Positions 12,705 to 57,990 of a stretch of 64,000 nucleotides of DNA are shown piece after piece (the first letter of the stretch is position 1; the number at the start of each line of letters is the position of its first letter). The translations under genes and the position numbers were made by a program. Source of the DNA: an uncultured Gammaproteobacteria bacterium (GTDB lineage Bacteria; Patescibacteriota; Microgenomatia; UBA8517); the NCBI GenBank assembly GCA_964458085.1, contig CAYWFF010000001.1, positions 890-64,889 of the forward strand, read 5' to 3'. The notes beneath the pieces were generated by a model, which was given only the letters and a program-made list of their open reading frames with translations, was not told the DNA's origin and searched no databases.

Positions 12705-12743
12705 TTCTTCACTATTTCCGTCAAGGCTGATATAATAGTCAAA

Positions 12744-39974: not shown

Positions 39975-39977
39975 AGA

Positions 39978-41072: not shown

Positions 41073-41385
41073 TCCCCGGTAGCTCAGTGGTAGAGCAGGA
41101 AGCTGTGAAGTGACGCAGCCTTCAACAGAGATGTTGAAGAGAAAATTGGGTGAATTGCGGGAAGCCTAAAGCTAAAGCTAAGGTAATCCGCAGCCAAGAC
41201 CTATTTGATATTATCAAACAGGTAAGGTTCAGAGACTAGGTGATTACACCCAGAGTCGAGTCTGACTCGACGAGAGCGCCCAACACCCTACCCTTTTAGG
41301 AAGGGTGATGAGATAGTCCACGCTATATGGAAACATATGGATCAGTGTAACTTCAAGGTCGTAGGTTCGAGCCCTACCCGGGGAG
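41073..41385 (+). tRNA. tRNA-Asn(GUU) interrupted in the anticodon loop by a group I intron
   Basis: exon 1 41073-41106 (UCCCCGG UA GCUC AGUGGUA GAGC A GGAAG CUGU) + exon 2 41348-41385 (UAA CUUCA AGGUC GUAGG UUCGAGC CCUAC CCGGGGA G); 7-bp acceptor, U1-A72, G73, body closely resembles bacterial tRNA-Asn; splice junction chosen by exon-terminal U / intron-terminal G and P1 pairing GCUGU/GCAGC. Confidence 0.7.
41107..41347 (+). ncRNA. group I self-splicing intron (241 nt)
   Basis: canonical core elements readable: P (GAAUUGCGGGAAG), Q (AAUCCGCAGCC), R (GGUUCAGAGACUAG), S (AGAUAGUCC); terminal G; 5' exon ends in U. Confidence 0.75.
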
Positions 41386-42876
41386 CACATTAGTACGATA
41401 TTCTGGCAAAAGCAGTACATCGTAAGGTTTTTTGAGGCGAAAATCGAGTTTTCCGTCTTTCAAAATAAGGTTCTCACCGAGGTCGAGAATCAAATCACGT
41501 TTTTCTTCCTTTGTCCCATTCTCCAATCTTTCTTTAGCTGAAAACGCATTATCGAGATATCGTGTGCACATTTCCAACCAAGTATCGGCTGAGTAATCAT
41601 TATCTTCCAACTTTTCTTTGATAGACTTTTTCTCATTGAGAAGTTCTGACTTCTGCTCCAGAAACTCTTCCTTAGTTAGTTCTTGATCTGCTCTCATCCT
41701 GACCAGATACTTAATTCGAGTTTGGATGGCATTATATTGATTCTGTAAATATCTTGCTCGTTTGGAAAACTTTTCTACTTCTTCTTGGTATTTGGCTTTG
41801 AATAACTCAATACCTAATTTCCATGTCTCTTCATCAATCTTGATCTGCACCATGTTTTCGAGCAGAAGTTTTTCTAATCTTTTGCCTGTTATTGCTTGTT
41901 GTTTGCAAATACCTCTTCTGTGAGTGCAATGGTGGTAAGTATAGACAACTGTTCTGTTGGTACGTTTGAAATACTTTGTTTTGACTGTTGTTGTGATTTG
42001 GCAGCCACAATCGCCACAAGTAATCAATCCGTTATAGGTATGCTCCCATACTTTCAATTTAGGCCGAGAACGGAGTTGTAATGCCATTTGCACATCCTCA
42101 AACAACTTCTTGGTTATTAGTGGTTCATACGTACCTTCAAACAACTCGCCATTATGGTGGAAGTATCCATAATAAACTATGCAGTTTAGAATGTTGTGTA
42201 CATGGCTTTTACTGATTTTCTTACCTCGCTTAGTTCGTAATCCTTTATCGTAAAGATGTTTGGCAATCTTTGAGAGGGGGTTACCTTCTTTCGCCATTTG
42301 AAAAGCCTGTTGAATCAATGGGCCTTCAAACGGATGTGGCCTCATAATTCGTTGTCCTCGAATACCAAAGCCTTCATATCCAACTATAGCTGGTCTGGGA
42401 TACTCACCACGTTCGCACTTATGATTTAGTCCTCGTTTTACGTTTTGACTTAGATTTCTTGAATACTGATTAGCCATCCCAAAGTGGATTTGCAGAATCA
42501 GGTGATCTGATTCCTGTGTATAGACAGAACCAGTTGCTGTTCTAATTTCCTTGAGCACACCATCTTGGAGGAGTTGTAAGATCATTCCTCCTTCTTCTGG
42601 ATTACCACAAAGACGATCTTCTTTCCAACAAAGAAAAGCATTTGCTTTTCCAGTCTTTATCAACTGGATTGCCTTATCAAAGTCTGGTCTGTTGTGAGGC
42701 TTGAAAGCTGATCTACTCTCAGAGAATCGGTATTTGACTCTGAGTCCTTCTCGTTTTTCAACCTTTACATTTTCAGCATGTTGATCTTTGAGAGAAGCTA
42801 CTTGTCGCTCTTTCGCTTCGGACGATTTGCGACCATATTCTATATGCACAATTTCATTATCTATACTCATATTCAT
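41374..42876 (-). CDS. large serine recombinase (integrase)
   Basis: N-terminal YGRKSSEAKERQ catalytic Ser motif, recombinase domain, C-terminal CGDCGC...HHC zinc ribbon + coiled coil; 500 aa. Confidence 0.8.
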   Translation of the reverse strand: MNMSIDNEIVHIEYGRKSSEAKERQVASLKDQHAENVKVEKREGLRVKYRFSESRSAFKPHNRPDFDKAIQLIKTGKANAFLCWKEDRLCGNPEEGGMILQLLQDGVLKEIRTATGSVYTQESDHLILQIHFGMANQYSRNLSQNVKRGLNHKCERGEYPRPAIVGYEGFGIRGQRIMRPHPFEGPLIQQAFQMAKEGNPLSKIAKHLYDKGLRTKRGKKISKSHVHNILNCIVYYGYFHHNGELFEGTYEPLITKKLFEDVQMALQLRSRPKLKVWEHTYNGLITCGDCGCQITTTVKTKYFKRTNRTVVYTYHHCTHRRGICKQQAITGKRLEKLLLENMVQIKIDEETWKLGIELFKAKYQEEVEKFSKRARYLQNQYNAIQTRIKYLVRMRADQELTKEEFLEQKSELLNEKKSIKEKLEDNDYSADTWLEMCTRYLDNAFSAKERLENGTKEEKRDLILDLGENLILKDGKLDFRLKKPYDVLLLPEYRTNVLPG

Positions 42877-42908
42877 CTACTTATAATTTTAGCAAAGTAA
42901 CAGCCTCA

Positions 42909-43457
42909 TTACAGTGATGGTTCCTCCTTATTACTCTCTCCTAAACTCTCCTCTATATCTCTAATATCTTCCTCAGATAAACCCAATTCACCCATAGAAG
43001 GAAAATTAGAGCTTTGAGGGCTGTTTTGAGATGACTTCCTTTGCATTTCTGCAATAAAATAATCCTCTTTTTCAATTTGTGTATGCAAGGTTGCAAATAA
43101 TTCTTTCATTATTGATTCAGGGAACTTAGCAAAGATTTTGATCCACTCTTTTTCAAAAGCATAATAATTGGTAATGATGGTCAGTCCATTTTTTTCGCTG
43201 AGAAGTCCCAATTTGATAAGTTCTTTACGCCTTCTATGAACTGTTGAAATACTACAGTTCCACGCTTTGGCTAATACTTGATCGTCACGGATGATTACTC
43301 TGTAATTTTCGTGTCTTCGATCAAAATCAGCTTGCATAACAAAGGCAATATAAGCACCTAACTGAGTAAAACCAAAATCTGGATGATTGAGAAGGAATTG
43401 GACACCTCGAAGAACCGAAATGTATCCGATAAAATTAGGTTTGTATTGAATCTTCAT
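42909..43457 (-). CDS. putative HTH DNA-binding protein
   Basis: CSISTVHRRRKELIKLGLL helix-turn-helix-like segment. Confidence 0.35.
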   Translation of the reverse strand: MKIQYKPNFIGYISVLRGVQFLLNHPDFGFTQLGAYIAFVMQADFDRRHENYRVIIRDDQVLAKAWNCSISTVHRRRKELIKLGLLSEKNGLTIITNYYAFEKEWIKIFAKFPESIMKELFATLHTQIEKEDYFIAEMQRKSSQNSPQSSNFPSMGELGLSEEDIRDIEESLGESNKEEPSL

Positions 43458-43479
43458 ATCAATCTGTCACAAATATCAA

Positions 43480-43725
43480 TTACCTTTCTGCGAACAAGCG
43501 ATCCTTGAGAAATCGCATGTTCATGCTGTATTGCTTTACAGGCTGTTTGAGTTCTCCAGAAAAATAGGCACTTGTTATTTCTTCTGACCCTTGTGAATCA
43601 AAAACAAACCAGTAGAAGTTTGCTTCTCGCTCAAGTCGAATTAGTTTGATTCCTGCTGTTAGCAAAGCTGCTGCATGGGCTAAATCCTTAGTAAATGTTT
43701 CTTTTGAATTACTGTTTGTTTGCAT
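43480..43725 (-). CDS. hypothetical small protein
   Basis: 81-aa ORF in recombinase-proximal module. Confidence 0.3.
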   Translation of the reverse strand: MQTNSNSKETFTKDLAHAAALLTAGIKLIRLEREANFYWFVFDSQGSEEITSAYFSGELKQPVKQYSMNMRFLKDRLFAER

Positions 43726-43912
43726 ATTCCATCCTCCATCTAAACTTGAATGTATGTTCTACAAATGAAACAAGATTCTCAGCAATGGTGATAACTTCTA
43801 AATCGGAGAGGGGGCGTTGATACTTTGGCTCGTACATTTTTCTGACTTTCTGTTGCAGTTCGTCAGTGAGCCATTTCGGAGCAATGATAGTTTTATTTGA
43901 TTTCTTATTCAT
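43709..43912 (-). CDS. hypothetical small protein
   Basis: 67-aa ORF overlapping previous by 17 bp. Confidence 0.3.
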   Translation of the reverse strand: MNKKSNKTIIAPKWLTDELQQKVRKMYEPKYQRPLSDLEVITIAENLVSFVEHTFKFRWRMEYANKQ

Positions 43913-43921
43913 CTGTTACCC

Positions 43922-44800
43922 TTGCTCGAAAAATTGTTTCCGAGCGATTACACAAAGGGTAACAAGAGAAGAACTCAAAGTAACTTGAGGTTTGGTGTGG
44001 TGGGCATTATTCTTGTTTTAGTAATAGGTGGATGGTACTTGTTCACTTCTCGTAATCAGGTAATGCTTTCAACCGAAGAACAAATAAAGCAATTAGAAGA
44101 AAAAATCGCTTCTGATCCTCAATATCAGGACAGAAGATCACAGACATACAAGGATGCACAGAACCAGTTGTGTTTGTTGAAAGCTCGTCCTACCGATCAA
44201 CGAGAAAAAGCAATTACTTCAATAAAGGCTTTCATTGATGATGAAAATGCCAAGGTTGATTTTTCCTGTGGAGAGTTTAGAAGGCCAGCATTTTTAGGAG
44301 CCTCACAAGCAGAGAGATATTTAGTAGATAACAACGAAATTATCATCAATACAGCTACGAATCATGTCGCTGAGATACCTGTTCAGGATAACTGGGTATA
44401 TCAAAAGGACGGAACACGTTTTGGTAATACATCTTCAAATCTACCCTTATATAGCCAGACAGAGATTGAGGAATTAGCCAAGAACTTTCTGACTAAACAT
44501 TCTCAAGCAATTGGGTCGATTGACCTCTCCTCACTAAAGTTTGAGATTGGCAAGAAGAGCAATGGGACCAGTTCAACAAATTATTTCCTTACTTGGAGTG
44601 GTGAACAGAAAAAAAGGAAATTACCAGAGCCTCAAAAGACATGCAGTAAGGATTTAGCACCAGAAGCAATCCAATACTACGAATCCGATGGAACGCCTTG
44701 TTACACAAATTACGAAGAAAACTATAACCCTCAACTAAGCATTGCATTTACGAACGAAGGGAGGCTTGTCAGTTTTAGTAGTTCTTTGGAGGTAGAGTAA
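43922..44800 (+). CDS. cargo protein 1: N-terminally anchored extracytoplasmic protein
   Basis: single TM (FGVVGIILVLVIGGWYLF) then about 240-aa domain. Confidence 0.4.
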   Translation: MLEKLFPSDYTKGNKRRTQSNLRFGVVGIILVLVIGGWYLFTSRNQVMLSTEEQIKQLEEKIASDPQYQDRRSQTYKDAQNQLCLLKARPTDQREKAITSIKAFIDDENAKVDFSCGEFRRPAFLGASQAERYLVDNNEIIINTATNHVAEIPVQDNWVYQKDGTRFGNTSSNLPLYSQTEIEELAKNFLTKHSQAIGSIDLSSLKFEIGKKSNGTSSTNYFLTWSGEQKKRKLPEPQKTCSKDLAPEAIQYYESDGTPCYTNYEENYNPQLSIAFTNEGRLVSFSSSLEVE

Positions 44801-45949
44801 ATGAAGTTCGGTATTAGAACACCATCACTCAAAAGGAGGATAGCAGCCAGAACATCTTGGAAACGCTTTGTAAGGCACAGTATGGGCTTGAAAGCTCCCA
44901 GAGGGATGGGAATAATAACAAACCCAAAAAAGGCTTTGTATAACAAAGTTTATAACAAGACATCTGTGAGTGTCGATGACTTGCTGAAAGGACATTCTCC
45001 TATTCCAGCAGTACCATCTCTCACACATAAACCAAATATGGAAGAACAACCACAAGCAGGTATACAAATAAACAATACAGGTAACATTATCAGGAGTTCG
45101 AGTCGAGCACTTACAGTTACAAGCAAGAACTTTCAGGAATTGCGACAGCAGATTACTGATATTTACAATCAGAGAGTTGAATTGCTCAAGAAACTGAGTA
45201 ACGCAAAGACTAAATTATTTTTACTTACCACTCTTCACTTTGGAAGCTATCTGTTCATCGTTGGTTTTTTCTACAAGAAAATTGCTGAAACAAGGAAGGC
45301 ACAGCAGGAAGTTGTCAAAGAATTAGAGAAACAAGTTTCCGAGACATTTGTGAAGTTGACTTTTGCAGACAAATCTCAATTAGAGAAAAGTTGGCTCAAT
45401 TGTATTGATGCTTTCAAAGAACTAATGAGTAGCGAGAAGATATGGGATATTACTTATGCTGAAAATGTGAATAGAGCACAGGCAAGAACAGTAGCCCAGA
45501 CAGCAACCAAACGTACTCCTATCACCAAAACTGAAAGGAATCTTGAGTTCATCAAGAGCGATTTGCCGTTCTTATTTCTTCCAAATGAAAATGGCCCAGA
45601 CCTATTTTTCTTTCCAACCTTTCTCCTTCTTTTCAAAGACAATCAGGAGTTTGGTATTTTCGACCTGAAAGAAATCAAAGCCAACATGAAATTATCAGGA
45701 TACATTGAGGAGGAGGGTGTTCCGAAGGACACTGAAATCATTCAACACACTTGGAAAAAGGCAAACAAAGATGGATCAATGGACAAGCGATTCAAAGGCA
45801 ATTATCAAATCCCAGTAGTGAAGTACGGAGATGTCACTTTTGAATCGGAGGGTGGTCTTGAGGAGTCATTCATGTTTAGCAACTTTGATGCTTTTACTGA
45901 TTTTTCAAAGACCTACGAATACCATGTTTCCTTATTAGGAAAACTCTAA
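44801..45949 (+). CDS. cargo protein 2: basic N-terminus, coiled coil, single mid-protein TM
   Basis: start overlaps stop of previous gene; TM LFLLTTLHFGSYLFIVGFFY. Confidence 0.4.
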   Translation: MKFGIRTPSLKRRIAARTSWKRFVRHSMGLKAPRGMGIITNPKKALYNKVYNKTSVSVDDLLKGHSPIPAVPSLTHKPNMEEQPQAGIQINNTGNIIRSSSRALTVTSKNFQELRQQITDIYNQRVELLKKLSNAKTKLFLLTTLHFGSYLFIVGFFYKKIAETRKAQQEVVKELEKQVSETFVKLTFADKSQLEKSWLNCIDAFKELMSSEKIWDITYAENVNRAQARTVAQTATKRTPITKTERNLEFIKSDLPFLFLPNENGPDLFFFPTFLLLFKDNQEFGIFDLKEIKANMKLSGYIEEEGVPKDTEIIQHTWKKANKDGSMDKRFKGNYQIPVVKYGDVTFESEGGLEESFMFSNFDAFTDFSKTYEYHVSLLGKL

Positions 45950-45951
45950 TT

Positions 45952-46713
45952 ATGTTTGGATTATTCAATAAGGCTAAGTTCTCCAGTGACGATGAAGCCT
46001 CTACAGCCCTTATGCGTATCTCCAGTATGGGTTTTGGAAGTGAGCAGGACTTCGCAAAAGATAACATGCTCAAGGTTCTGGCTGAAGTCGAACAGTACGC
46101 CAGCAATTTACAGAATCCGAAACTGGCTTATTGGTTAGGCATTGCGTGGAGAAACTTTACTGCTTGGCATATTCGAGGTGAGGATAGAAAAGAATATCTG
46201 GATAAAGCAGTGTTCTACTTTGATAAGGCCTTACAACTCTCAAAAGATACTTTACCAATTCAACTTCCACTTGAGAAACGACATAATGCCGATTACTTGG
46301 ACCAAATTGATATTGCTGGAGAGTTAGGGCACATGCTCGTTGAAGATGCTCCTATACGTGACTTGGATCGAGCAGAAAAGGTACTGCAATTCGTTTTTGA
46401 TAACACAGAGGAATACGAACCATGCCTCTGTGCCTATGCAGAGCTGTTTTATAAGCGTGGTGACTATGAGATATCTGCTGAGATCGGACTCAATATCAGC
46501 GACAGGTGTGCAAAGTCCCCAGAATGGAAGGATGATCCACCACCTGCACCATTGGGCATTGTTGGCAGTGCTTATAGGGCGTTAGCAAAACAGGCAAAGA
46601 AAGAGGGCAAAACCAACGAAGCAATCAAATGGTTCAAGAAAATGAAGGATTTGAAAGTCGCTTCCGACAATGATTTGAAAATCTTGGAAAAGCTGAAATC
46701 TGCTGGCCTATAA
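45952..46713 (+). CDS. cargo protein 3: soluble helical (TPR-like) protein
   Basis: 253-aa ORF 3 bp after previous. Confidence 0.4.
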   Translation: MFGLFNKAKFSSDDEASTALMRISSMGFGSEQDFAKDNMLKVLAEVEQYASNLQNPKLAYWLGIAWRNFTAWHIRGEDRKEYLDKAVFYFDKALQLSKDTLPIQLPLEKRHNADYLDQIDIAGELGHMLVEDAPIRDLDRAEKVLQFVFDNTEEYEPCLCAYAELFYKRGDYEISAEIGLNISDRCAKSPEWKDDPPPAPLGIVGSAYRALAKQAKKEGKTNEAIKWFKKMKDLKVASDNDLKILEKLKSAGL

Positions 46714-46759
46714 CTCTAATTGAAGTCTGTATCAAGTCTTGGTATAATTCCGATCAAAT

Positions 46760-47200
46760 ATGGCAGAACGACTACCAGCACCGATTAGTCCAGTTGACGC
46801 AATAAGATCAAGGGCTTTTATGGAAAGTTATATCAGGGTCATTCCATCTTTGATTCCTCCTGCAATTATGAATGAAGCACAGTCAATCGTTGCAGCTCAT
46901 AGGCCTGAAGGGGTGCTACCTGGCGAAGAACCTGTTTGTATGGCAGGTTTGAAGCCAAAAGATCACGGCTTTCTCAATGGTTTACATTTACGATCTAAGG
47001 ATGAGCAAAGAAAGATTTTTGCACAGAAAAGATCGGAGTATGCTGGTGACCCAGTAGCCCAGCAACAGATTGATGTTTACGATGGCGATACTGAGTACCA
47101 TGTCAAGATGAGGGAGTTTAGTGATGCTTTGAAATCAGGTAATTCCCAGAAGGAAGCAGAGTTAGACGCTTGGTTCAAGGAACATTATCCAAACATATAA
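46760..47200 (+). CDS. cargo protein 4: hypothetical
   Basis: 146-aa ORF. Confidence 0.35.
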   Translation: MAERLPAPISPVDAIRSRAFMESYIRVIPSLIPPAIMNEAQSIVAAHRPEGVLPGEEPVCMAGLKPKDHGFLNGLHLRSKDEQRKIFAQKRSEYAGDPVAQQQIDVYDGDTEYHVKMREFSDALKSGNSQKEAELDAWFKEHYPNI

Positions 47201-47201
47201 T

Positions 47202-48821
47202 TCAGTTGGCAAATGTGGGCGTGTAGTTATTTGACATAAGAAACTCTCGATAATAGTTTCCCACATAGTCAGTTAGTGCGAGCCAAGTATCACTTATCCG
47301 AACTAGCCTCAAATTTTCAAGTACTTTGAAGGCATCGGTATAAGTAACATTTACAACTTCTTTATCTTTTATCCAGATTTTGCATGCAAACCATCTTAAG
47401 AACTGTTTTTTCTCCTTTTTATTAAATGCTTTATATAGCTTGGGTAATTGCTTTAAGAATTTAATAATAGTATCTATTTTCTTGTCATCCAAGTTAGCTG
47501 AAGGCTTGGAAAGCTTTGCAATATCAGCCTCTACGGATTTAAGTTCATCCTTCAAAGGTAAATACTTCTTTTCAATTCTATCTTGAGGCATTACTTCTGC
47601 AATCATCTGATCTTCAAGTTTGTCCATTTTCTTTTCTATCACTGCTTTTCGGTCTTTCAGTGCCTTTGTTCGTGATGGAATATCATCTCCTTGTTCTTTC
47701 ATAACCTCTTCGAGCTCAGTTCTCAAGCCCTTGAAAAATCTCTCATCAAACTTGATGTTAGCCATAAACTTTTCTAATTGCTTATGAACTTTATCCATCG
47801 GAGCATAGGATTGTTTGCAAACCTTTCCTTTTCTTGAACCTAGACATCGATAATACTTAAAAACCCTTCCATCTGGTTTGACGTGTTGCTCACCAGACAT
47901 AAGAGTTCCACATTCATCACAAAAGACCAATCCTGCAAGAAACCAATTGTGTTTTCTTGACCTGTCAGCACCTTTGTTATGTTTAGCTAAGATTGCCTTA
48001 GACTTTTCTATATCTTCCATTGTTACTATTGATTTATGTTTACCGTCATACATTTTCCCACAATATAACACCTTTCCAGCATAGCGTACATCAGTAAGTA
48101 TTCTGTGAATATTGCTGGAACTAACTCTTTTTCCGTTCTTGGTTCTAAAGCCTTCTTGATACATTTCTTCTTCAAGGGAATAGATGGAGTGATTACCTGT
48201 ATGAAATCTTCTGAAAATTTCTTTAATAAAGTAGACTCTTTCTTTATCAATTTTCCAGGCAACGCCTTTTTTATAAGAGTTTAGATATCCAATGACTGCA
48301 ACTCCTGGTTGAAAACCTTTCTCTGCAAGTGCTACCATTGTTCTTTTTGTCTTCTGTCCTGTTATTTCCCTTTGAAGCTGATTTGCTCCAGCCATTACTA
48401 AGTCCACAAATTTACCAACTGGATCATCACCAAAGTTAGGTTGTTGTGTGGCTATTAGTTCAACACTGTGTTTTTTAAGAAACGATTTTACAGCTAAATG
48501 GTCTTGTGCATCTCTTGCGAATCTATCTGTTTCCTCTAACAAAACAATATCAACATCCTTATCTTTCTCACATCGCTCAAGCATTCTTGTAAATTCTGGC
48601 CTACCAGTTGTACTACCACCACTCTTGCCTCCGTCTTTATAGATTTCTAATATTCTCCAGTTATGTTCTCTTGCATATTTAACCAACCTATCTACTTGAT
48701 CATCTAGAGAATGTCCTTCCCGAACCTGTCTATCTGTGCTTACTCTTGCGTATATTAGACAGCTTTTGATTCTAGCTTGATCTTCTATATGAGAAATATT
48801 TGTTGTATATGTCATTTTCAA
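47202..48821 (-). CDS. large serine recombinase (second copy, distinct sequence)
   Basis: IYARVSTDRQ catalytic motif, recombinase domain, CDECG...YYRC zinc ribbon, C-terminal coiled coil; 539 aa. Confidence 0.8.
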   Translation of the reverse strand: MKMTYTTNISHIEDQARIKSCLIYARVSTDRQVREGHSLDDQVDRLVKYAREHNWRILEIYKDGGKSGGSTTGRPEFTRMLERCEKDKDVDIVLLEETDRFARDAQDHLAVKSFLKKHSVELIATQQPNFGDDPVGKFVDLVMAGANQLQREITGQKTKRTMVALAEKGFQPGVAVIGYLNSYKKGVAWKIDKERVYFIKEIFRRFHTGNHSIYSLEEEMYQEGFRTKNGKRVSSSNIHRILTDVRYAGKVLYCGKMYDGKHKSIVTMEDIEKSKAILAKHNKGADRSRKHNWFLAGLVFCDECGTLMSGEQHVKPDGRVFKYYRCLGSRKGKVCKQSYAPMDKVHKQLEKFMANIKFDERFFKGLRTELEEVMKEQGDDIPSRTKALKDRKAVIEKKMDKLEDQMIAEVMPQDRIEKKYLPLKDELKSVEADIAKLSKPSANLDDKKIDTIIKFLKQLPKLYKAFNKKEKKQFLRWFACKIWIKDKEVVNVTYTDAFKVLENLRLVRISDTWLALTDYVGNYYREFLMSNNYTPTFAN

Positions 48822-48840
48822 TACTTTTTCATAACTTTAA

Positions 48841-48925
48841 TGGCCGCCTGGTGAGCTCAACCCAATTGGTATGGATTGTCCAGACGGCCATCAAAAAAAC
48901 CAATTGGTTGTTGAACTCAATTTAA
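48841..48925. promoter_or_regulatory. imperfect inverted repeat (TGGCCGcCTGG / CCAGAcGGCCA) around a core with GAGCTC and CCAATTGG palindromes, upstream of recombinase 2; candidate att/regulatory site
   Basis: arms at 48841-48851 and 48880-48890; second CCAATTGG at 48900-48907. Confidence 0.3.
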
Positions 48926-48950
48926 TTGAAGCATAAATGTCAAATATTTG

Positions 48951-50546
48951 TCAACTCGCTCTTGCTTCAATATCTTCAAGCTCATTTTGAACCCATTCTT
49001 GGTTAACTTCAATGTCTTTGTTTAGCAAATACTTTTCTTTATTTTCTAATTCAAATTCCCAATGTCCCATTTCAACCGCCCGAAAAGTCTGAAGTATACT
49101 TTCCACATCTGAATTGTGTGTGTTAATAAACAATTCAATTTCACTTTTAGCTCGTTCAATAGTTCCAAAGGGATTTTTGGGATTACTGCTTAATAGCTCT
49201 CCATCATAATGATTATCACTAATTGTTTCTGTTAAAGCTATTCTTTCCTTTATCTCTTTAATTTTGTTTGTGGCATTAGTCACAAATTCTATAAGTGCAT
49301 CTTCATAATCTTTTTTGGATATTTTTACGTCTGCCATATCGCTTTTAAACCAATCTTTGTTTACTTTTACAGGTAACAAAGTAGTCAAAATTGTTACTAT
49401 AAATGATTGCTGTTGTCGGTATCTTTTAATAAGATATTCATCATGAGGGGAGGAGACAACAATAGCTTGTCTGCTTCTTTCTTCTTTTTCTGTAAGGTTT
49501 ATATCCCCTGGATATACAATACCCTTTGTGTCAGTGTACCTTAGCTCTATGCAGTCTTCACTTAGAGGGTTATAGCCTCTATCTTTTTCTCCAGGCTCTC
49601 CAGCATATTTCTGATATCTTCTATCCCAATCATAATAACTTCCAGCCTCAATACCTTCCACCTCTTTGATACTCCACTTTTTAGCTTTACGATCATAATG
49701 TCTAATCTTTCCTGTTGCTTTAACAAGCTCACCATCGATGACTGCTTTTTTTATCCTCTCTTTTTGTTCATCTATAGCTTTTTGCCAAGTTTCATACTCT
49801 TTCTTGCTTGGTTTTTCTAATGCATGTGCTTTTTCTTTTAGAACAATATCTTTAAGCTCATCATCTGACTTACCAACATACTCTTTATACTCTTTCCAAA
49901 GATAAGGCTCTTCACCTATCTTGTCTTTGAATCTCTTATAATTATCTGCTCCGTTTTTTAATCTATTTGTAGCTTTACTTATCAGCTCTTCTTTAGTTTT
50001 CCCATATCTGTCCATCCACCATAAATATTCATCCAAAAGTTCAAATTCTTCGTCTAGCTTTTCTTTTACTTTCAGCTTGTAGAATGCTTCTTGTTTGGCC
50101 AAACCATGCCTCCCATCTATTTGTAAAACCTCTTTTTTAATGGATTTTTTTGCCCTTTTAATCGCTTCGTTATATTCAGTTTTTGTCACAATTACAGGAA
50201 TATTTTCAACATACTCAATTGCTTTATTTAGAATTGGAGATATCGAAAGCAGATAAGTTAAAGGTGAAATTTGTTTTTTATATAAGTTTAATTCTAATAA
50301 AAGAATTTCAATTGTCGGTAGAAGTCTAGTCCACACTTCTTCTTTAAGGGAAATGTAGAAATTATATTTTTCAACTTGTTCATTTGGGCATGCTGAAACA
50401 ATAGTCTTTATTTGACTCTGAACCTCTGGAGGGAGCTCACCATTATTTACCTTGTCAAATGCTTCCATTTGAAGTTTGACTATTAGCTTTGCTCTTTCTT
50501 TTGGTGTCATGAATATAGACACTTTGTTTATATTTAGGTTTCTCAT
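48951..50546 (-). CDS. hypothetical protein (element-encoded)
   Basis: 531-aa K/E-rich ORF. Confidence 0.4.
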   Translation of the reverse strand: MRNLNINKVSIFMTPKERAKLIVKLQMEAFDKVNNGELPPEVQSQIKTIVSACPNEQVEKYNFYISLKEEVWTRLLPTIEILLLELNLYKKQISPLTYLLSISPILNKAIEYVENIPVIVTKTEYNEAIKRAKKSIKKEVLQIDGRHGLAKQEAFYKLKVKEKLDEEFELLDEYLWWMDRYGKTKEELISKATNRLKNGADNYKRFKDKIGEEPYLWKEYKEYVGKSDDELKDIVLKEKAHALEKPSKKEYETWQKAIDEQKERIKKAVIDGELVKATGKIRHYDRKAKKWSIKEVEGIEAGSYYDWDRRYQKYAGEPGEKDRGYNPLSEDCIELRYTDTKGIVYPGDINLTEKEERSRQAIVVSSPHDEYLIKRYRQQQSFIVTILTTLLPVKVNKDWFKSDMADVKISKKDYEDALIEFVTNATNKIKEIKERIALTETISDNHYDGELLSSNPKNPFGTIERAKSEIELFINTHNSDVESILQTFRAVEMGHWEFELENKEKYLLNKDIEVNQEWVQNELEDIEARAS

Positions 50547-50548
50547 GA

Positions 50549-50923
50549 TTATTTTCTTTTTACGGTCTTTCGTTGCATAAGAATACTTTCAATCATTTCA
50601 ATACGGCCATCTAAGTTTGCTGTTTCCATGGCTTTTAATGTATGGCTGCAAATATAAGCAATTGTGTTGGCTACATTAGGAGGTATAGAGCCGTTCCTTA
50701 CTCCATTTATAGTTTCCTCAAGAATCTCAACAACATCACTTGGCGTTTTTACATCTCGTTCTGGTAAAGATAATCTATCTCTTTTCGATGATTTTCCTCC
50801 TTTAACCACAGCCAAACTATGATCTTCTTTAGTGTCTGGGTTGTGAGCAAAGCAATAGTTCGATTTTTTCATAGCATTAGCACCACACCTTTCTCCGTTA
50901 GTTTTTGTATAAGTACATTTCAT
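50549..50923 (-). CDS. hypothetical protein with N-terminal Cys/His cluster
   Basis: MKCTYTKTNGERCGANAMKKSNYCFAH. Confidence 0.35.
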   Translation of the reverse strand: MKCTYTKTNGERCGANAMKKSNYCFAHNPDTKEDHSLAVVKGGKSSKRDRLSLPERDVKTPSDVVEILEETINGVRNGSIPPNVANTIAYICSHTLKAMETANLDGRIEMIESILMQRKTVKRK

Positions 50924-51435
50924 AAATTTCCTCCTTGTTTATTAGCAACTCTAATGGGGGTAGGGGGTAACTCTTCCTTCTTAGACCACTCGCAATCCTG
51001 TCCAAATATTTCCTTTACTGTGTCTAACAATTGATTTTCATCCATAAAATAAAGCATTTCTCGCTTTCTTCCTTCGTCTTCAATTCTTTCAATAAGTTTT
51101 AATGCTGCCTCGAATTTTTTAACTTTCTCTTTTTTCTCATCATCGTCAAGCAACGTTCTTTCTCCGATTTCTTTATCAAGAGTATCTGCAAACGTTTTAG
51201 CTTCTACATATCTTTCTAATAGAATCTCACCTGGCCATTCTTGTAAATATCTAACATCTTTATATTTTGCCTCGTTTTCAGCTTGTTCTATCAAGTCTGT
51301 CAGCCTTTTTTCAAGTGTTGCAATTGTTTCCATGCGTGCTCCTGCTTTTTTTGCTACCTTTATGTTTGATTTTGCCTGTTTAATAGCCTTGTTTAACTCA
51401 GTAGACATCTTTGTTGACGATTGGTAGACGTTCAT
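50920..51435 (-). CDS. hypothetical coiled-coil protein
   Basis: 171-aa ORF. Confidence 0.35.
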   Translation of the reverse strand: MNVYQSSTKMSTELNKAIKQAKSNIKVAKKAGARMETIATLEKRLTDLIEQAENEAKYKDVRYLQEWPGEILLERYVEAKTFADTLDKEIGERTLLDDDEKKEKVKKFEAALKLIERIEDEGRKREMLYFMDENQLLDTVKEIFGQDCEWSKKEELPPTPIRVANKQGGNL

Positions 51436-51638
51436 GTTTATTTAATCCTCCTTGTTTTCGGAACAAATTGATAATTCGGGTAGACGTTAGTATTTATAGA
51501 GATATACAAGAAGCACTCACCAAAATGACATCTGCCTACTAGTATTTGTCTAGAAACCGTAATGTCTACCACTTTTCTTGTTTTATCCCTATTTTTAGGT
51601 GTATTTGTTGTTTTCATATGTCTACCTAATGTCTACCC
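51422..51638. repeat. array of GGTAGACG / CGTCTACC motifs (2 in one orientation, 3 in the other)
   Basis: tGGTAGACG 51422, gGGTAGACG 51468, aATGTCTACC 51561, ATGTCTACC 51618, ATGTCTACCC 51629. Confidence 0.45.
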
Positions 51639-53881
51639 AAACATCTCTAGATTGGGAATTCCATATCTGCGTAATAAATCTTTGACAATGCTGACTTTGA
51701 CTTTATACCTACAATAACCTCTTACTTTTCTTCCTCTTATACCAAATCTTTTAAGTGCTGCACCTACACCTCTACTGGTAAAGTACTGTCTTTGATCTAT
51801 TTCAAGATATTCGCTTGCTTTATCTTTTATCTCTTTGTTTTCAAGTTCTACTGTTTCCTGTTGACCAACAAGTTCTCTTAATGCAATTAGGACTGCGGAG
51901 TCAAAATCATCAAGGTCGACACTAGAGGTTTCTTCTGCTCTTCTTATTGCCTCATCTCTTATGTTTTCAAAAGTTCCTGGAAGCTCTGTATCTATTATTT
52001 TTGCAATAGAGAGTAGGGGTTTCCAAAGCTCGTTTTGGCGGTTAAGTAATGCGTTTACTTTAGAATCTGAGCTATATATTTTTGCTATCTTTTCGGAATA
52101 ATCCAGTGAAAATGAGTATAAAAGATTTCTTAGATAACTCCAGTCTTCAGACCCTTCTGTAACAGCGGTATTTCCTTTATCTGGGTTATTGGTTCTTACC
52201 ATTGTTAGGGTAATTGACCTGTCTTCTAACACATCATCAAGTCCTGATATGTTGGCAATGGCTTTAGGGCTATAGATTTCAAACGCCTCAATATCAAAGT
52301 TGCCTTTTTTGTTTTTTGTGGTTCTGTATGCAGGTGCTCCTCTTTTGTAGCCTGAATTTAACAATTCCCTTAATTCTTGTTTTCTTGTCTTATCTGAAAG
52401 CTGTTCACCTTCATCAAGTGCCAGTGTCGGTCTTTTTGCTTCAACCAATCTAAAGAGCACTGCAGGAGAGATATTACTTGATATGATTGCGTTAAATGCT
52501 AATTTTTCAATAATAAGAAGTGTTTTGGTTTTTCCACTTCGTTTTACTCCAACAAGGTATAAATACGGATACGCATCAAAAACAGGGAAACAATATGTTC
52601 CCATCAGCCAAAGAGCAATAATATCTGCATCATTCTCATCTCTGAAATCTACAAATTTTTTTAACACTTCTTTTATTTCTATAAAGGCAAGGGAAGGAGA
52701 AACTTTATCTTTATTGACTAGAAACTTGTTAATATCTTCTACTTTCCATCTCTGAATGTTGTTTGGAACAAGTGATACGTCACGTAGACTGTATGTCTTA
52801 TTTTCAAAATCTATATAACCATGTCGGTTTTTGTCTATTCCAACTTGTTTATTGCTAGTAATTACAACTACAGCTTTAGATTTCTCATCATCTACTTGAA
52901 CTGGTAGCTCGAATGTATAAAACAATTTGCTGTCTTTATAGTCTACGGCAGGATGAATTTTCGAATCTGACTCTTCATTTAGTAGCTTCACTTTAGGTTT
53001 ATGAGACTTAGCTTCATCAAGCAATTTTTGAAAGTCATCAGCAGAATGTCCTTGCTTCACAAAAAAGTCTGTTAAGTCTACTTTTTCTTCACCGTTTTTA
53101 GGAAGTTTAACAATCCTGGCTCTGTCACCAATAAAACTTGCTACTTTTTTAGCACCTGATACACCTGCTTCATCAGTATCAAAACAAATATATATTTGTT
53201 TTACACTTTCGAACTCTTTTACCCACTCTTTTTTAAAAGTACTTGCACCTGCAGTACTGCTTACGGAAGGAAAGCCGTTTTGCGTGGCTATTATAGCGTC
53301 AAACTCACCTTCACAGATAACTATGTAGGAATGGTTATTCTCTAGTGCCACACTATTAAAGATCGAGGCTTTACCACCTTTTTCATTCCAATATTTTTGT
53401 CCCTTATTCTTTTTTGGATCACGGCGGTGACGAAGGTTTACTAAAACATTATTAACAAACACGGGAAGTACGATACTTTCTCCATCCCATCCGATTCTAA
53501 ACTTGTTTATGGTTTCTTCAGTAAGTCCACGCTCTTTGAGTAAATACTCTTTTATACTGTTGGGTATGTTTTGATGATAGTTGTCAACATTTTTAATGCT
53601 AAAGTTTTTTTTCTTTAGCTTTACTTTATATTCAATTCCCCTGTTAATTACCTGTTTTTCAAGTTGAGGCAGGTTATTATCTCCAAGTTTTTCAGTTATG
53701 TTCTGCCAACTGCCTTTAGCTCCACAGCGATGACAAATATAACATCCATCAGCGTTGTTGATATATAAATGCTTTTTTTATCATCACAGAATAAGCATTG
53801 TATTTGTGCTTCTTTGCCTTCGGACACAATTTTGTGTGGTATACTTTTTGCTGACAAGTATTGTTCTACGTTTTGATACAT
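51633..53881 (-). pseudogene. DnaG-type primase (zinc-binding + Toprim) fused to P-loop NTPase, frameshifted within an A7 homopolymer (about 53773-53779)
   Basis: Toprim VICEGEFDAIIATQNGF and Walker A GVKRSGKTKT in 51633-53462 ORF; upstream in-frame extension encodes ...KKHLYINNADGCYICHRCGAKG up to a TAA at 53778-53780; the 53696-53971 ORF in another frame encodes ...QCLFCDDKKSIYI; joining at the A-run restores a CxxC-x16-CxxCHxCG primase zinc ribbon. Confidence 0.6.
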
Positions 53882-53931
53882 AAGTCTTGGCGGAGGAGAG
53901 GAAGGGTTAGTCCCTCTCCTCCAAAGAAAAA

Positions 53932-54333
53932 CTATTTTTTGGCTGGCATTACTTTTGATATGTCCTGCCAACCTTGTTCATCTCCTGGTCGGTCTTCAAC
54001 CAGAATTTGACAATTTGTCTCCACTAACTCCTCAAGGTCAACCTCTTCACTTGGACTAGGTTCTCTGCCTAATAATGCAGTTACTATACGAAACAGTTTT
54101 GAACTGGTATCAGGTGTTTTACCTTTTGTGAGCTTTGCAGAAGCTGCAAGAGAGCGTTTTGTACCTTCTTGTTCTCCAGAGTTAATTTCAAACTCTAAAA
54201 GAACATAAGAACCATATTTACCCTCCTCTTTATGCTCCCATCCAGTGAATTTTGCAGGATACACTCCTACAGGAATTGGTTCTGGAGCTTGTGGCTCTTT
54301 AACAGTAAATTTTCCTTCAGCCATTGCCGTCAC
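53932..54333 (-). CDS. hypothetical protein
   Basis: 133-aa ORF. Confidence 0.35.
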   Translation of the reverse strand: MTAMAEGKFTVKEPQAPEPIPVGVYPAKFTGWEHKEEGKYGSYVLLEFEINSGEQEGTKRSLAASAKLTKGKTPDTSSKLFRIVTALLGREPSPSEEVDLEELVETNCQILVEDRPGDEQGWQDISKVMPAKK

Positions 54334-54646
54334 CTCCTTTCGATGGCTCTTGATCTAATAAATCTGATGATTGTTCTTCTGGACGTAAGAGTTGTGTAGC
54401 CTTTACTGATATTGCAGTCTGGATTTTTTCTCCAACCTTTTCATTTATGGGGTAGAAGATAGGAATCTGCTTTCCATTCTTAAGAACCTTTGTTGGATAT
54501 ACGCACCTGAACCCTGAACCATCTCTTTTGGTGAAGACTGCGATATTTCCTACGAAATATTTACTGTCTAACACACAGCTTGCAAAAAATGTTAGTCCTC
54601 CTTTTGCTTTAATCGGTAATAGTTCTATTTCAGTTATTTTTGTCAT
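54317..54646 (-). CDS. spoVG: SpoVG-family nucleic-acid-binding protein
   Basis: ITEIELLPIKAKGGLTFFASCVLDSKYFVGNIAVF...FRCVYPTK...IFYPINEKVGEKIQTAI follows the SpoVG pattern (VTDVRL..GxxRAxASITLDxEFVVHDIRVI..FVAMPS...HPIN). Confidence 0.55.
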   Translation of the reverse strand: MTKITEIELLPIKAKGGLTFFASCVLDSKYFVGNIAVFTKRDGSGFRCVYPTKVLKNGKQIPIFYPINEKVGEKIQTAISVKATQLLRPEEQSSDLLDQEPSKGGDGNG

Positions 54647-54878
54647 ACTTTTTTACCTCCTCTTCAGCAAGTTTTCTGTCATACCACTCAAGCAGAAGTT
54701 CTGCTAGTGGCCTAAATGATCCACTTGCGGTCTCAATTTCTTTCTTCTTTATTTTCTGGACTTCTTGTCCAACAATTTTTTTAAACTTTTTAGTATTCAT
54801 TGTTTCACTTATTCACTACTTGACTGTTTATAGAGTAAAGGAGGAAAAGTGAAAATATAGGTAAAGTACTGAAGTAAA

Positions 54879-54984
54879 AATGAAGATTTTGGTTCACTGT
54901 AGAATAGATGATTTTATTGATGAGCGTAAAGTATGAAGATTTCGGTTCAAATTTTTATCTTCATCCGATCAAAATATGAAGCTT
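54879..54984. repeat. iteron-like direct repeats ATGAAGATTT(T/C)GGTTCA x2 (+ partial third)
   Basis: copies at 54879-54897 and 54932-54949, partial at 54975-54984; between 614-aa gene and SpoVG gene. Confidence 0.4.
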
Positions 54985-56827
54985 AGTTTATATCTATCTT
55001 ATATGACCCTTTATAAAAACCTTTTGCTTTATTGATCTCTATTTTTCCGTTAACTTCAGGGAAATTTCGCTTTAAACCGTCAAGTATTAACCTTCTTATT
55101 TTTGGTGCATATTCTACTCCCTCTCTTACTTTTCGTGTACTGGAGTAGCTATTTTTTTGTGACAGATTCCATATTGTTACCATTCGCTTTTTTTCAACTC
55201 TAACATTTTCAACAAATTCTTTAAAAACTTTAAACCAAGGAGTGTTAATTGACACTGGCTTAGAAAACCCTAATCCAGGATAGTGTATCTTAGCTTGGTT
55301 TCTGGATTCTCTAATTATAGTAATTTTATCAAACTTAGCTATCGTGCCTTGATCGTTAAAATCTTCATCTCCTTGGTTTGATTCTGTGATAGTTTCTTCG
55401 TCAGTTGTGTCAGTTGGTACATCAATGTTTTGTTTTCCTGACCTTAATTCCCACAGTATCTCGCTTAATAAAGTTTCCTTTGTATCTCTTATTGGAAAAG
55501 TAGCATAAACCCTATTTGGCTCTATAAGATTAGGTATTTTCGCTGACATGTCCATAGCCTGTCTCACACTATCCAGGAAGCCGTTCGGAAGTTCAAACTG
55601 AAATCTCTTCGCTATTTCATTTAACTCTTTTTGTATATTCTGGTAGGGTACTAATGAACGTTGGATATCAGGCATCATTTCTGAAATTCTCTTTTCAACC
55701 AGTCCACTCATTTTCTGCATCTCCTTGTACAAACCCATCCTAGATAAAATATAGCGGTGTAGCCGTTTTAGCCATGTCTCGAATTTTTTTCGATTAAGAT
55801 ATACAGTTGCTCTACCCTCTACAATTGAATTAATCTCAGATCTATAAATATCGCTAATGGCATCGTCTTTAGGAAAATAGTATTCTTTGTTAATTTCATA
55901 TACACCTGCAGCTATTCGAGTTATGTTGTAGTGAGCCCACCAAACAGTATTTTCTCTTATCTTTTTAAACTTTTCCCATTCTTTATGTGCTGCTGAATAT
56001 TCTTTAAATAGTTTTGGAGTATTAGTATCTTGAATTAAATGCTTTTTTATAAGATTCCTTTTACCTTCGTTCACAAATCTTTCTATTAGCTCTCTATAAG
56101 GTGTGTAAAAGTAGTCCAATTCTTCATCGAAGAAGGACGTTTCTAAATCTTGTATTCTTGCTTTTAGTTGAGCTATTTGGCTAATAAAAGGACTAGTTGG
56201 ATCATCCTTGAGTCCTGCCCTGGCTGCTTTTCCTAGCAAGTCTTTAGAAAGAGGAACAAGTTTGTTGTAAAATTCATTTCTTTTATCTCTATAGCTTGCC
56301 AAGTCTTTCTGAGAATCATCTTTTAATGAAGCTAGCAAGGACGATAACACATCACTCTCAATTAGATACTTTCCGTAATCAGCTAATTTAATAAAAAATT
56401 GGTCTTCTTTTTGTTCTTCAGTTATTTCTTCATATTTTGTTTCTAAGTCAGAAATTAAAGTTTCAGCGAACTCCTTCTTACTTATTTGGATTTTAGTCTT
56501 ATCATTCGGAGAGTATTTTTTATATACCTCATCGAATTTGGGTTGGAGGATTTCAAGATCAAACTCTCTTGCATTATCCCATTGGAATTCGAGGCCGTAA
56601 CGTTCGCTCTCACTGCGTTTTGTAATTATCTTAATTGCTCCTAATTCTTGAAGTTTTTTTAAAATAGCAATTTTTCTTCTCCTGGGTATTATGCCTACTC
56701 CGACAACTTTTCCAATTACAAATTTAACAGGTTTACCTTTTTCTGTAGCTAAAGCCTCTTCTTTAATCTTTTGTAGGATTTCCCACACTTGTTCATTAAA
56801 TTTTTCTTCAGGGTCACTTTTTCCCAC
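54983..56827 (-). CDS. hypothetical large protein (possible replication initiator)
   Basis: 614-aa K/E-rich ORF next to iteron-like repeats; no motif recognised. Confidence 0.35.
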   Translation of the reverse strand: MGKSDPEEKFNEQVWEILQKIKEEALATEKGKPVKFVIGKVVGVGIIPRRRKIAILKKLQELGAIKIITKRSESERYGLEFQWDNAREFDLEILQPKFDEVYKKYSPNDKTKIQISKKEFAETLISDLETKYEEITEEQKEDQFFIKLADYGKYLIESDVLSSLLASLKDDSQKDLASYRDKRNEFYNKLVPLSKDLLGKAARAGLKDDPTSPFISQIAQLKARIQDLETSFFDEELDYFYTPYRELIERFVNEGKRNLIKKHLIQDTNTPKLFKEYSAAHKEWEKFKKIRENTVWWAHYNITRIAAGVYEINKEYYFPKDDAISDIYRSEINSIVEGRATVYLNRKKFETWLKRLHRYILSRMGLYKEMQKMSGLVEKRISEMMPDIQRSLVPYQNIQKELNEIAKRFQFELPNGFLDSVRQAMDMSAKIPNLIEPNRVYATFPIRDTKETLLSEILWELRSGKQNIDVPTDTTDEETITESNQGDEDFNDQGTIAKFDKITIIRESRNQAKIHYPGLGFSKPVSINTPWFKVFKEFVENVRVEKKRMVTIWNLSQKNSYSSTRKVREGVEYAPKIRRLILDGLKRNFPEVNGKIEINKAKGFYKGSYKIDIN

Positions 56828-56990
56828 TTCTTCAATACCTTTCTTGGCAGGTATTTTACCATTTTTTCGATCTCAATCTTTAGCATTATTTGTATTATAC
56901 AAAGCCGTTCTTTTTTCTTGATACAGATAACTTTACAAAATCTGTTTTTCCATATGATTTAAGAATTAATTTTTTATACAATTAAAATCA

Positions 56991-57932
56991 ATGTTGGTAT
57001 CTATTTTAATCTTCTGCTTTGCATTCGCACTTCTTTGGGTTGGTTCTGGATTGGCAATCTCTGCTGTTACCAGGCTTTCAAGAAGCTTTAGGATGTCAGG
57101 TTTTTCAACCTCTTTTTTAATGCTTGGCCTCTTTACCTCGTTTTCCGAAATTGCCGTTGGTGTTAATGCATTTATTGATAAAGAACATGAAATATTTGTG
57201 GGTAACTTGATAGGAAGCTCGGTAGTGGTATTTCTTTTTATCACCCCCTTATTAGCCTTTTTAGGGAGAGGACTTAAGCTAAACCATAATTTTTCGTACA
57301 AGGATTTGATATCAGCTCTTTTTGTAATTGGCATGCCTGCACTTCTTAGTTTAGATAGACGCATAGGTATTATCGATGCAATAGTTTGTGTTTCTATTTA
57401 TTCATACTTTTTTTATATGAGAGACCGTGGGTTCAAATCAATCAGAAAGATAGTTTCCATTAAATTAACTAACACTCAACTTCATCTGCAATTATTAAAG
57501 ATACTTACAGGTATAGGTCTTCTACTTTATGCAAGCAATCTATTGGTAACCCAAACAGTTGTTTTAGGAGAAAGTCTTAATATCTCTACCTTTTTTATAA
57601 GCCTGCTTGTTATATCAGTTGGAACTAATATTCCTGAAATAGCTGTAGCGATTCGTTCGGTTTTAGCTCACAAGAACGATATAGCATTTGGTAACTATGT
57701 AGGATCTTCTGCCCTCAATACCTTAGAGCTTGGAGTTCTTACCTTGGGAACAAGAGGAACAATTCATCTCACACAAAGCTCACCGTTCAGTCTGGTAATT
57801 TTCCTTATAGGACTTGGAGTTTTTGCATATCTTGCAAAAAGTAAAAACGACCTATCGCGAAATGAGGCAAAAATTCTATTGCTTTTCTATTTTGCATTTA
57901 TAACATTTGAGGTAATAAAAGCGGTTGAATAA
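56991..57932 (+). CDS. CaCA-family cation/Ca2+ antiporter
   Basis: two alpha-repeat motifs GNLIGSS and GNYVGSSALN in a 10-TM layout. Confidence 0.7.
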   Translation: MLVSILIFCFAFALLWVGSGLAISAVTRLSRSFRMSGFSTSFLMLGLFTSFSEIAVGVNAFIDKEHEIFVGNLIGSSVVVFLFITPLLAFLGRGLKLNHNFSYKDLISALFVIGMPALLSLDRRIGIIDAIVCVSIYSYFFYMRDRGFKSIRKIVSIKLTNTQLHLQLLKILTGIGLLLYASNLLVTQTVVLGESLNISTFFISLLVISVGTNIPEIAVAIRSVLAHKNDIAFGNYVGSSALNTLELGVLTLGTRGTIHLTQSSPFSLVIFLIGLGVFAYLAKSKNDLSRNEAKILLLFYFAFITFEVIKAVE

Positions 57933-57990
57933 ATGATTCAGTCAAAATTTTGGTTTGGTATATAAACTTAGTATACAATCTTAGTAGGTT

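Follow-up and report, generated by a model that had tools for sequence, protein, structure and literature searches.

Two different large serine recombinase (LSR) genes lie downstream of a tRNA gene in a 64,000-nt stretch of DNA from an uncultured bacterium (contig CAYWFF010000001.1, positions 890 to 64,889; hereafter "the window," whose own coordinates are used throughout), and the question that this locus raises is whether they belong to one mobile element, to two, or to a phage in decay. An earlier note on this DNA had described 41374–56900 as a single integrated element with two recombinases, possibly a degraded prophage. Integrated mobile DNA does abut the tRNA, with serine recombinases, replication genes and no recognizable virion genes. 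However, this DNA very probably forms an island, 41,383–60,229, in which two integrative elements, independent of each other, have stacked up behind a single tRNA-Asn(GUU) gene at its 3′ end. Rather than one element with two recombinases, we find two in tandem—element A (5,897 bp, core to core) and element B (12,946 bp, including transporter cargo)—each with its own tRNA-proximal LSR and each of a type that occurs alone elsewhere.

A four-base core at every junction

The target gene, the junctions and the element ends (the latter unstranded) are as follows.

41073..41385, plus strand: tRNA-Asn(GUU) target gene, with exons 41073..41106 and 41348..41385 and an intron, 41107..41347, between U35 and U36
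41383..41386: GAGC core at the left junction (tRNA/element A), i.e., G71, A72 and G73 plus the next base
47206..47283: element A right end (P arm) and second GAGC, ...CGATAATAGTTTCCCACATAGTCAGTTAGTGC-GAGC, at the A/B junction
47280..47283: GAGC core at the A/B junction, second of three copies
47294..47303: TTATCCGAAC motif, the recombinase-side arm of element B, conserved in loci L038 and L039 and single-copy in the window
60186..60229: element B right end (P arm), with GTTCGGATAA at 60203..60212 and GAGC at 60226..60229
60226..60229: GAGC core at the right junction of element B, third of three copies

GAGC is the only sequence common to all junctions in our junction table. It stands at each junction examined, i.e., in the window and at reference loci L008, L012, L018, L032, L033, L037, L038, L039 and L040, and also where no tRNA is present (window position 47280, between modules 2 and 1 of L032, in L033 and in L040). 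Rightward of the tRNA we found no repeat of its end of at least 9 nt, nor a displaced tRNA 3′ fragment as a distal direct repeat, in agreement with the earlier failure to find an attR copy; this lack follows from junctions that share GAGC alone, which is normal for serine recombinases. We infer that the crossover dinucleotide lies inside GAGC.

The element ends were placed by comparison with relatives. At the left junction, the element-side sequence GAGCACATTAGTACG... is common to L032 and L037 regardless of the left neighbour, and GAGCACATTAGTACGATATTCTGGCA... adjoins the A-type LSR in three contexts, irrespective of the sequence to its left. The segment 47,206–47,283 matches L037 (86% over 81 nt) and L032 (97% over 36 nt). 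Each match lies about 9 kb away from the A-type LSR, closes the A-like element distally and gives way to GAGC and then unrelated DNA; because these matches recur distally before GAGC, we take the segment to be A's right end. For element B, the window holds 137 GAGC sites, of which the 60,226 one alone follows GTTCGGATAA, the exact inverted copy of TTATCCGAAC in B's other arm; both 10-mers are single-copy in the 64 kb, and no other site has an inverted repeat longer than 8 nt. The right boundary is therefore 60,229, not 56900, the end of the span given in the earlier note. Host synteny with L037 resumes to its right, with a 74-aa gene (81% identical) whose 90% cluster supplies the only name among the host proteins, Candidatus Blackburnbacteria. 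The host proteins looked up are singletons in their 90% clusters, and that one name, with those of the LSR homologues, suggests a Microgenomates/CPR (candidate phyla radiation) host; because protein names point there, we did not adopt the Omnitrophota assignment that the tRNA half alone would give. An alternative end for B at AAGC 56,902, which has a look-alike in L038, was rejected: a 4-nt match is at chance level, the resulting tail lacks the family motif described below, and GC content does not change there.

Base composition separates the two elements. GC content is 0.401 in the left host flank, 0.391 over 41.4–47.3 kb, 0.348 over 47.3–56.9 kb, 0.347 over 56.9–60.0 kb and 0.375 beyond. The earlier impression of some 15 kb of AT-richer DNA thus stands from 47.3 kb onward but fails for element A, whose composition is host-like.

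From these arms, four sequence-derived junctions are predicted.

Predicted attP(A): ...CAGTTAGTGC-GAGC-ACATTAGTACG...
Predicted attP(B): ...CCCATAGACG-GAGC-CAAGTATCAC...
Predicted B alone at the tRNA: ...CCCGGG-GAGC-CAAGTATCAC...
Predicted empty site: ...CCCGGG-GAGC-AAAGGAACTC...

Recombinases that read across their own junctions

The two recombinases, whose lengths and distinctness the earlier note had given correctly, are only 24% identical to each other.

41374..42876, minus strand: LSR-500, element A recombinase, 500 aa (Resolvase 3e-15 and Recombinase 9e-16 in Pfam; integrase family phrog_95, 1e-58)
47202..48821, minus strand: LSR-539, element B recombinase, 539 aa (Resolvase 1e-29, Recombinase and Zn ribbon in Pfam)

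By domain content both are ordinary LSRs. In LSR-500 the catalytic domain (PF00239, 3e-15) bears the serine motif ...YGRKSS..., PF07508 scores above its cut-off and the zinc ribbon Zn_ribbon_recom (PF13408) just under (24.0 vs. 25.3 bits); in LSR-539, PF00239 (1e-29; ...YARVSTDRQ), PF07508 and PF13408 (34.9 bits) are all above cut-off.

Each LSR gene lies at the tRNA-proximal edge of its element, on the strand opposite to the tRNA, and its open reading frame (ORF) therefore spans its junction. LSR-500 ends ...VLPG-stop in tRNA antisense. Its stop and last four codons had been placed in the tRNA end; the stop and last three (41374..41385) do lie there, whereas the fourth-last, Val (41386..41388), falls on the bases that replace CCA. 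The final residues of such LSRs are the antisense of tRNA CCA, GAG, GGG, CCC and CTA. About 1000 LSR-500 homologues are 50–91% identical, the named ones being from Curtissbacteria, Woesebacteria, Pacebacteria, WWE3 and the Microgenomates group. Within one cluster of at least 90% identity, sequences agree through ...PEYRTNVL and then split into the tails PG, RD, LE, LD, AS, PR, PREDSNLEPFR, PRLDSNQEPID and others; as the tails diverge after Leu, the limit of the mobile DNA is that Leu codon, which is GAG in the tRNA end. Among the top 120 LSR-500 homologues, short or DSN-type tRNA-antisense tails occur in 67 of the 74 in which the pre-tail motif was found. Members of both LSR families terminate in (W/V/M)-L-(P/R)-x, in many cases with D-S-N after it, this being a tRNA acceptor stem and T-loop read in antisense.

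LSR-539 carries the trace of a different neighbour. It reads ...RISDTWL across CCA-GAG (47,280–47,285), and its last 25 residues come from A's right end. Its homologues (a smaller family than that of LSR-500, with P0121, the same protein on a 93-kb NCBI contig, and a named relative from Woesebacteria) are mostly 512–514 aa long and end ...TWLP(G/R/D), most with tRNA-antisense tails, and its orthologues in L038 (73% identical) and L039 (67%) run into an intron-split tRNA-Asn. From these endings we conclude that B once stood directly at the tRNA.

Tails that do not read into a tRNA share a motif, x-L-x-D-hydrophobic-hydrophobic-R-T, encoded by the far end of an element (sources: window 47206..47279 and 60186..60225; proteins P0001, P0057, P0067, P0128, P0146, P0147 and P0150). 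Examples are LRLWDIIRTV (predicted for B's circle), ALTDYVGNYY (predicted for A's) and, in relatives, PVMDHIRTV, RLMDSIRTYY and PLWDAIRTAM. P0057, just 54% identical to LSR-500, has the tail ALINFVRTYYREIP, compared with ALTDYVGNYYREFL predicted for A, and the predicted circular-form tail of LSR-539, LRLWDIIRTVSELK..., fits the motif of its family members. The Arg codon of the motif is AGG in one case and CGA in another, a hint that the tail may be constrained at the protein rather than the DNA level.

The same elements singly and in arrays elsewhere

Occupancy of the site is patchy. An LSR adjoins tRNA-Asn in antisense, just downstream, in 5 of the 30 genomes with this tRNA half (mostly Omnitrophota-labelled metagenome-assembled genomes, MAGs). 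At L008, L012 and L018 the LSR stop falls on the same base as in the window, the proteins ending ...WLPG-stop rather than ...VLPG-stop. An A-like element stands alone in L037, and B-like elements stand alone in L038 and L039. The A-type LSR of L037 is 86% identical to LSR-500 (91% for L032 to L036) and overlaps an intron-less tRNA-Asn; in L032 it lies away from the tRNA, and it is the LSR of an intervening second element that overlaps tRNA-Asn.

A sign of activity comes from L032 and L033, which derive from different sequencing runs. Their sequences agree to 99.98% across 18,456 nt and then part exactly at the boundary G/GAGC, beyond which L032 has tRNA-Asn, and L033 the end of a further element. 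On the 1.13-Mb contig of L040, a family member whose tail is not of tRNA type has next to it a second element, which possesses the DUF5659, HTH_36 and LSR core and reads into an intron-split tRNA-Asn; GAGC is at both junctions, the arrangement that a stacking model predicts. Tandem arrays are thus present in the window, L032/L033 and L040, and from the L032/L033 divergence and the L040 array we conclude that stacking at tRNA-Asn is recurrent and its tRNA-proximal member variable. A gene order shared with relatives, which the earlier note held would tell against an insertion, was not found: order is not kept, and the near-identical assembly pair differs at the predicted crossover. A scan of the genome collection with the 274-aa upstream protein gave no relatives, and LSR-500, LSR-539 (taken from its TTG start) and the Na/Ca exchanger of element B had no exact counterpart on record. 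Sequencing run SRR9016296 contains a 99.96%-identical contig.

The target tRNA-Asn gene and its group I intron

ARAGORN reports zero tRNAs in the 64-kb window because a group I intron splits the gene; Rfam places RF00028 at 41097..41340 (119 bits), between the two tRNA halves. Splicing in silico as group I introns require (U ahead of the 5′ splice site, G closing the intron) yields a canonical tRNA-Asn(GUU), with a Thr(UGU) product also possible. The exact 3′ half is present in 30 reference genomes, and in 16 of these it belongs to an intron-less tRNA-Asn(GUU), which identifies the window gene as Asn(GUU). Its tRNA body is intact, and the encoded CCA is replaced by CAC.

The intron is itself widespread at this gene. 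An intron-split appearance was noted in 13 of the 30 genomes, and Rfam confirmed a group I intron (56–119 bits) in the window, at every one of the 11 ARAGORN-negative loci that were tested, and likewise in L038 and L039. Intron-split tRNA-Asn loci are those of the window, L002, L004, L006, L008, L012, L014, L016, L018, L020, L021, L030, L038, L039 and L040; such genes escape standard tRNA finders, and in the searchable literature we found no paper on an intron in tRNA-Asn. In L037, a GIY-YIG endonuclease ORF (11545..11877) abuts the 5′ side of the intron-less tRNA-Asn, the same tRNA that often bears an intron in this lineage. L002 (JAIWAR010000065.1), binned as "Methanosarcinales archaeon," has a bacterial-type intron-split tRNA-Asn half as in Omnitrophota MAGs, and its archaeal label is probably a binning error.

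Gene content of the two elements

42909..43912, minus strand: element A conserved core, encoding a 182-aa HTH_36/DnaD-like protein, an 81-aa DUF5659 protein and a 67-aa protein (Pfam/PHROGs)
43922..47200, plus strand: element A cargo, encoding proteins of 292 aa, 382 aa (phrog_17982), 253 aa (weak tetratricopeptide repeat match) and 146 aa
48951..56827, minus strand: element B core genes, encoding a 531-aa orphan, 124-aa and 171-aa proteins, a primase, a 133-aa protein like single-stranded DNA-binding proteins (SSB-like), a 109-aa SpoVG-like protein and a 614-aa modular orphan
51633..53881, minus strand: Toprim/DUF3631 primase, with a frame change at an A7 run (53773..53779)
56991..60048, plus strand: element B cargo, a 313-aa Na/Ca exchanger and a 562-aa CPA2-type cation/H+ antiporter with TrkA_N, together with a 130-aa membrane protein on the minus strand

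Element A shares the gene order small gene, DUF5659, HTH_36, LSR with L032, L033, L037 and L040, and its core is 80–87% identical to that of L037/L032; in its cargo, the 382-aa gene has a split counterpart, 83–87% identical, within the A-like element of L032.

Element B contains the primase, the SpoVG-like protein (31.3 bits vs. a cut-off of 29.6) and the several orphans that had been noticed earlier. From the recombinase through the SSB-like gene it is colinear with L038 at 40–77% identity, the far-end large gene of L038 being unrelated to the 614-aa protein. The primase is otherwise intact but needs a −1 shift at the A7 run, where the L038 orthologue is a single 754-aa ORF. The structural model of the 531-aa protein is confident (predicted local distance difference test, pLDDT, 90; predicted template modelling score, pTM, 0.75) and has no match in BFVD or PDB (best E = 0.05, template modelling score, TM, below 0.15). 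For the modular 614-aa protein there are 252 representative homologues; the 34 relatives that were scanned contain no Pfam domains. The cargo at 56991..60048 has the GC content of the rest of B (0.347) and lies inside the boundary defined by the attachment site.

A Na/Ca exchanger also occurs in L032 (2398..3369), 42% identical to that of the window (56991..57932) and in an otherwise different element. It abuts the right end of the A-like element in L032 and lies 2.3 kb from B's right end in the window, which suggests a recurrent cation-transporter cargo.

Searches for virion functions were negative, in line with the earlier note, which recognized no capsid or terminase genes: no protein of the elements matches a capsid, terminase or portal family in Pfam or PHROGs, and no Zot/pI-like morphogenesis ATPase, the mark of inoviruses, was matched in either. 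The ORFs of 41.4–60.2 kb include no Phage_integrase (tyrosine integrase) domain, and IMG/VR holds no relatives of the primase, of LSR-500 or, by family alignment, of the 531-aa protein. PADLOC detected no defence system among ten proteins (one marginal match, E = 0.003).

How the island may have formed

We propose that B would have entered the tRNA-Asn end first, LSR-539 then ending ...DTWLPG-stop inside the tRNA, and that A would have entered the same tRNA end next, displacing B outward and giving LSR-539 its 25-residue, A-encoded tail. We consider this order fairly likely. LSR-500 and LSR-539 would catalyze attP × attB recombination with a 2-nt staggered cut, for which the L032/L033 polymorphism at the core is indirect support. 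The recombinase-side arm supplies the last tRNA bases, and the tRNA body remains intact for that reason. B's exit is probably possible only after A's. Once excised, the elements may replicate as circles, B via its primase and SSB-like protein and A via its DnaD/HTH_36-like protein. Our reading is that both are replicative integrative elements, plasmid-like or tycheposon-like, and not a degraded prophage.

A more speculative idea, which we think rather doubtful, is that the recombinase gene is deliberately built across its own attP, so that integration swaps a conserved C-terminal circle tail, specified by the opposite end of the element, for PG-stop; the tail would then signal the free or integrated state and possibly bias integration vs. 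excision without a directionality factor. Stacking would impose last-in, first-out excision.

Competing explanations

Several observations weigh against two mobile elements stacked in this order. The host-side arm outside the core varies among genomes, which is unusual for an LSR attB. The host-specific tRNA half was not found in a metagenome scan, and metagenome and viral contigs alike lack the predicted attP(A) junction; neither an empty site nor a circular junction of these particular elements was recovered. A general dyad-symmetry test on the reconstructed attP(A) was not significant (339 of 2000 shuffles reach its score). The right ends of the B-like elements of L038 and L039 were not found within the 10 kb covered. 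The frame change in the primase may mean that B is decaying; it could be a real frameshift, slippage or a base-call/homopolymer error. The order of arrival, finally, is unprovable by sequence alone. As to symmetry more generally, the same dyad test on attL and attB was also not significant, and a dyad inside A's right arm was treated as incidental.

The limit on ordering the events, together with the identical core at every junction, is what favours the opposite sequence, in which A came first to the tRNA and B later entered A's distal junction (attR of A). LSR-539 would then have had to use the right arm of A, unrelated though it is, as a substitute for the tRNA arm. LSR-539-type enzymes read into the tRNA arm in L038 and L039, which makes that arm the natural partner, and it is the tRNA-proximal element that varies between L032 and L033; we hold the reverse order to be unlikely. 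The neighbouring modules could instead form one composite element, 41.4–60.2 kb moving as a unit and the second LSR being cargo or serving inversion or resolution, as their adjacency, shared orientation and DUF5659-type or related small genes would allow. This is extremely improbable: a complete A-type right end plus GAGC sits exactly between the modules, each module type is found alone at tRNA-Asn in other genomes, LSR-539 keeps the ...DTWL signature of a former tRNA junction, and the modules differ in GC (0.391 vs. 0.348).

Two further explanations concern what the elements are. In a degraded or unconventional prophage the orphans (531, 614, 171 and 124 aa) would be virion or packaging proteins of an unknown virus type; as satellites, the elements would hijack a helper phage. 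A recombinase with a primase and small regulators resembles the layout of a satellite, PHROG families without known function are matched by several element proteins, and most B genes have no known function. We judge this distinctly unlikely in the face of the missing structural, terminase and portal matches, of a 531-aa fold that matches no viral or solved structure, of the lack of IMG/VR relatives, and of core gene sets that are conserved and colinear in relatives (in L038 except for the unrelated far-end large gene), contrary to decay. Alternatively, the recombinases could be fossil or domesticated genes of an immobile remnant beside a tRNA, with the shared GAGC merely the tRNA end, as might fit with the failure to recover a circular form or an empty site for the window genome and with the primase frame change. 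Such immobility is very improbable, since GAGC also marks the tRNA-free junctions (window 47280, L032, L033, L040), near-identical assemblies differ at the core, occupancy is patchy (5/30), and both LSR ORFs are full length with catalytic domains. Two stacked integrative elements, B the probable earlier arrival and A at the tRNA, remain the reading that we prefer.

Relation to known integrative systems

Phage-type LSRs recombine short att sites, attP and attB sharing a very small core, and leave no long direct repeat after integration. The LSRs of Bxb1, phiC31, A118 and TP901-1 share with those of the window the Resolvase, Recombinase and zinc ribbon domains and a long helical C-terminal region. 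The present system differs in its target, which is neither a protein-coding gene nor an intergenic site but the very 3′ end of a tRNA gene, in a recombinase ORF that spans its own crossover site, in carriers that are not recognizable phages, and in its hosts, candidate phyla radiation (CPR) bacteria and Omnitrophota-labelled MAGs. A large LSR survey defines targets solely as protein-coding genes and never mentions tRNA (10.1101/2021.11.05.467528).

Tyrosine-integrase islands of the Islander/TIGER and P4-like types have the integrase at the tRNA 3′ end, restore the tRNA and form tandem arrays with the newest member proximal (PMC4383910). The integrase position, the restored tRNA and the arrays are common to our elements, whereas the enzyme superfamily is different, and here there is no displaced tRNA fragment, with only 4 nt shared. 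Among Prochlorococcus tycheposons, 27 of 937 carry an LSR in place of the tyrosine recombinase (10.1101/2020.12.28.424599). Tycheposons are likewise small replicative integrative elements at tRNA genes, with primase/helicase genes, ecological cargo and tandem arrays; they differ in host phylum, and we detected no shared gene families. The elements described here work like a tycheposon but are not classed as one, for the hallmark deep-branching tyrosine recombinase is missing.

A crossover site within the recombinase ORF also has a precedent. In archaeal tyrosine integrases of the SSV type, attP lies inside the integrase gene and integration changes the product by splitting the gene. Integration alters the product in our elements too, but the exchange is confined to residues beyond the Leu (GAG) codon and leaves the enzyme domains intact. 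In the searchable literature we found no prior description of these elements.

Other features of the window

Three tandem paralogues of class II, NrdJ-type adenosylcobalamin-dependent ribonucleotide reductase (714, 780 and 820 aa) lie at 141..7172 on the minus strand. Two cobalamin riboswitches (38751..38868 and 39963..40082, plus strand) closely precede small genes, namely those for DUF4430 and DUF6580 proteins and for a 274-aa orphan. The riboswitches and the three B12-dependent reductases suggest a neighbourhood of B12 uptake and B12-dependent functions. At 10371..15686 on the plus strand are two neighbouring genes for bifunctional penicillin-binding proteins of the PBP1A family (777 and 980 aa).

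Implications

Measured against the searchable literature, four aspects of this locus are new: the terminal GAGC of tRNA-Asn as a target; the convergence of two LSR lineages, 24% identical, on that GAGC; a recombinase ORF that spans its own crossover, so that its tail depends on context; and the stacking of elements in CPR and Omnitrophota-labelled genomes. Because these ORFs read antisense into a tRNA or a neighbouring element, the recombinase tails in gene models appear random. LSRs that use a conserved tRNA end as natural attB would also be candidates for genome engineering, with landing sites that would pre-exist in many organisms.

Integration into tRNA genes is usually seen as the territory of tyrosine integrases, yet here two LSR lineages use the same four bases of tRNA-Asn, and the pattern recurs in CPR (Microgenomates-type) genomes and Omnitrophota-labelled MAGs. 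Within the papers that could be searched, this is the first att-level description of integrative elements in these poorly understood, unculturable lineages, and it shows how such elements stack into islands with transporter genes as cargo.

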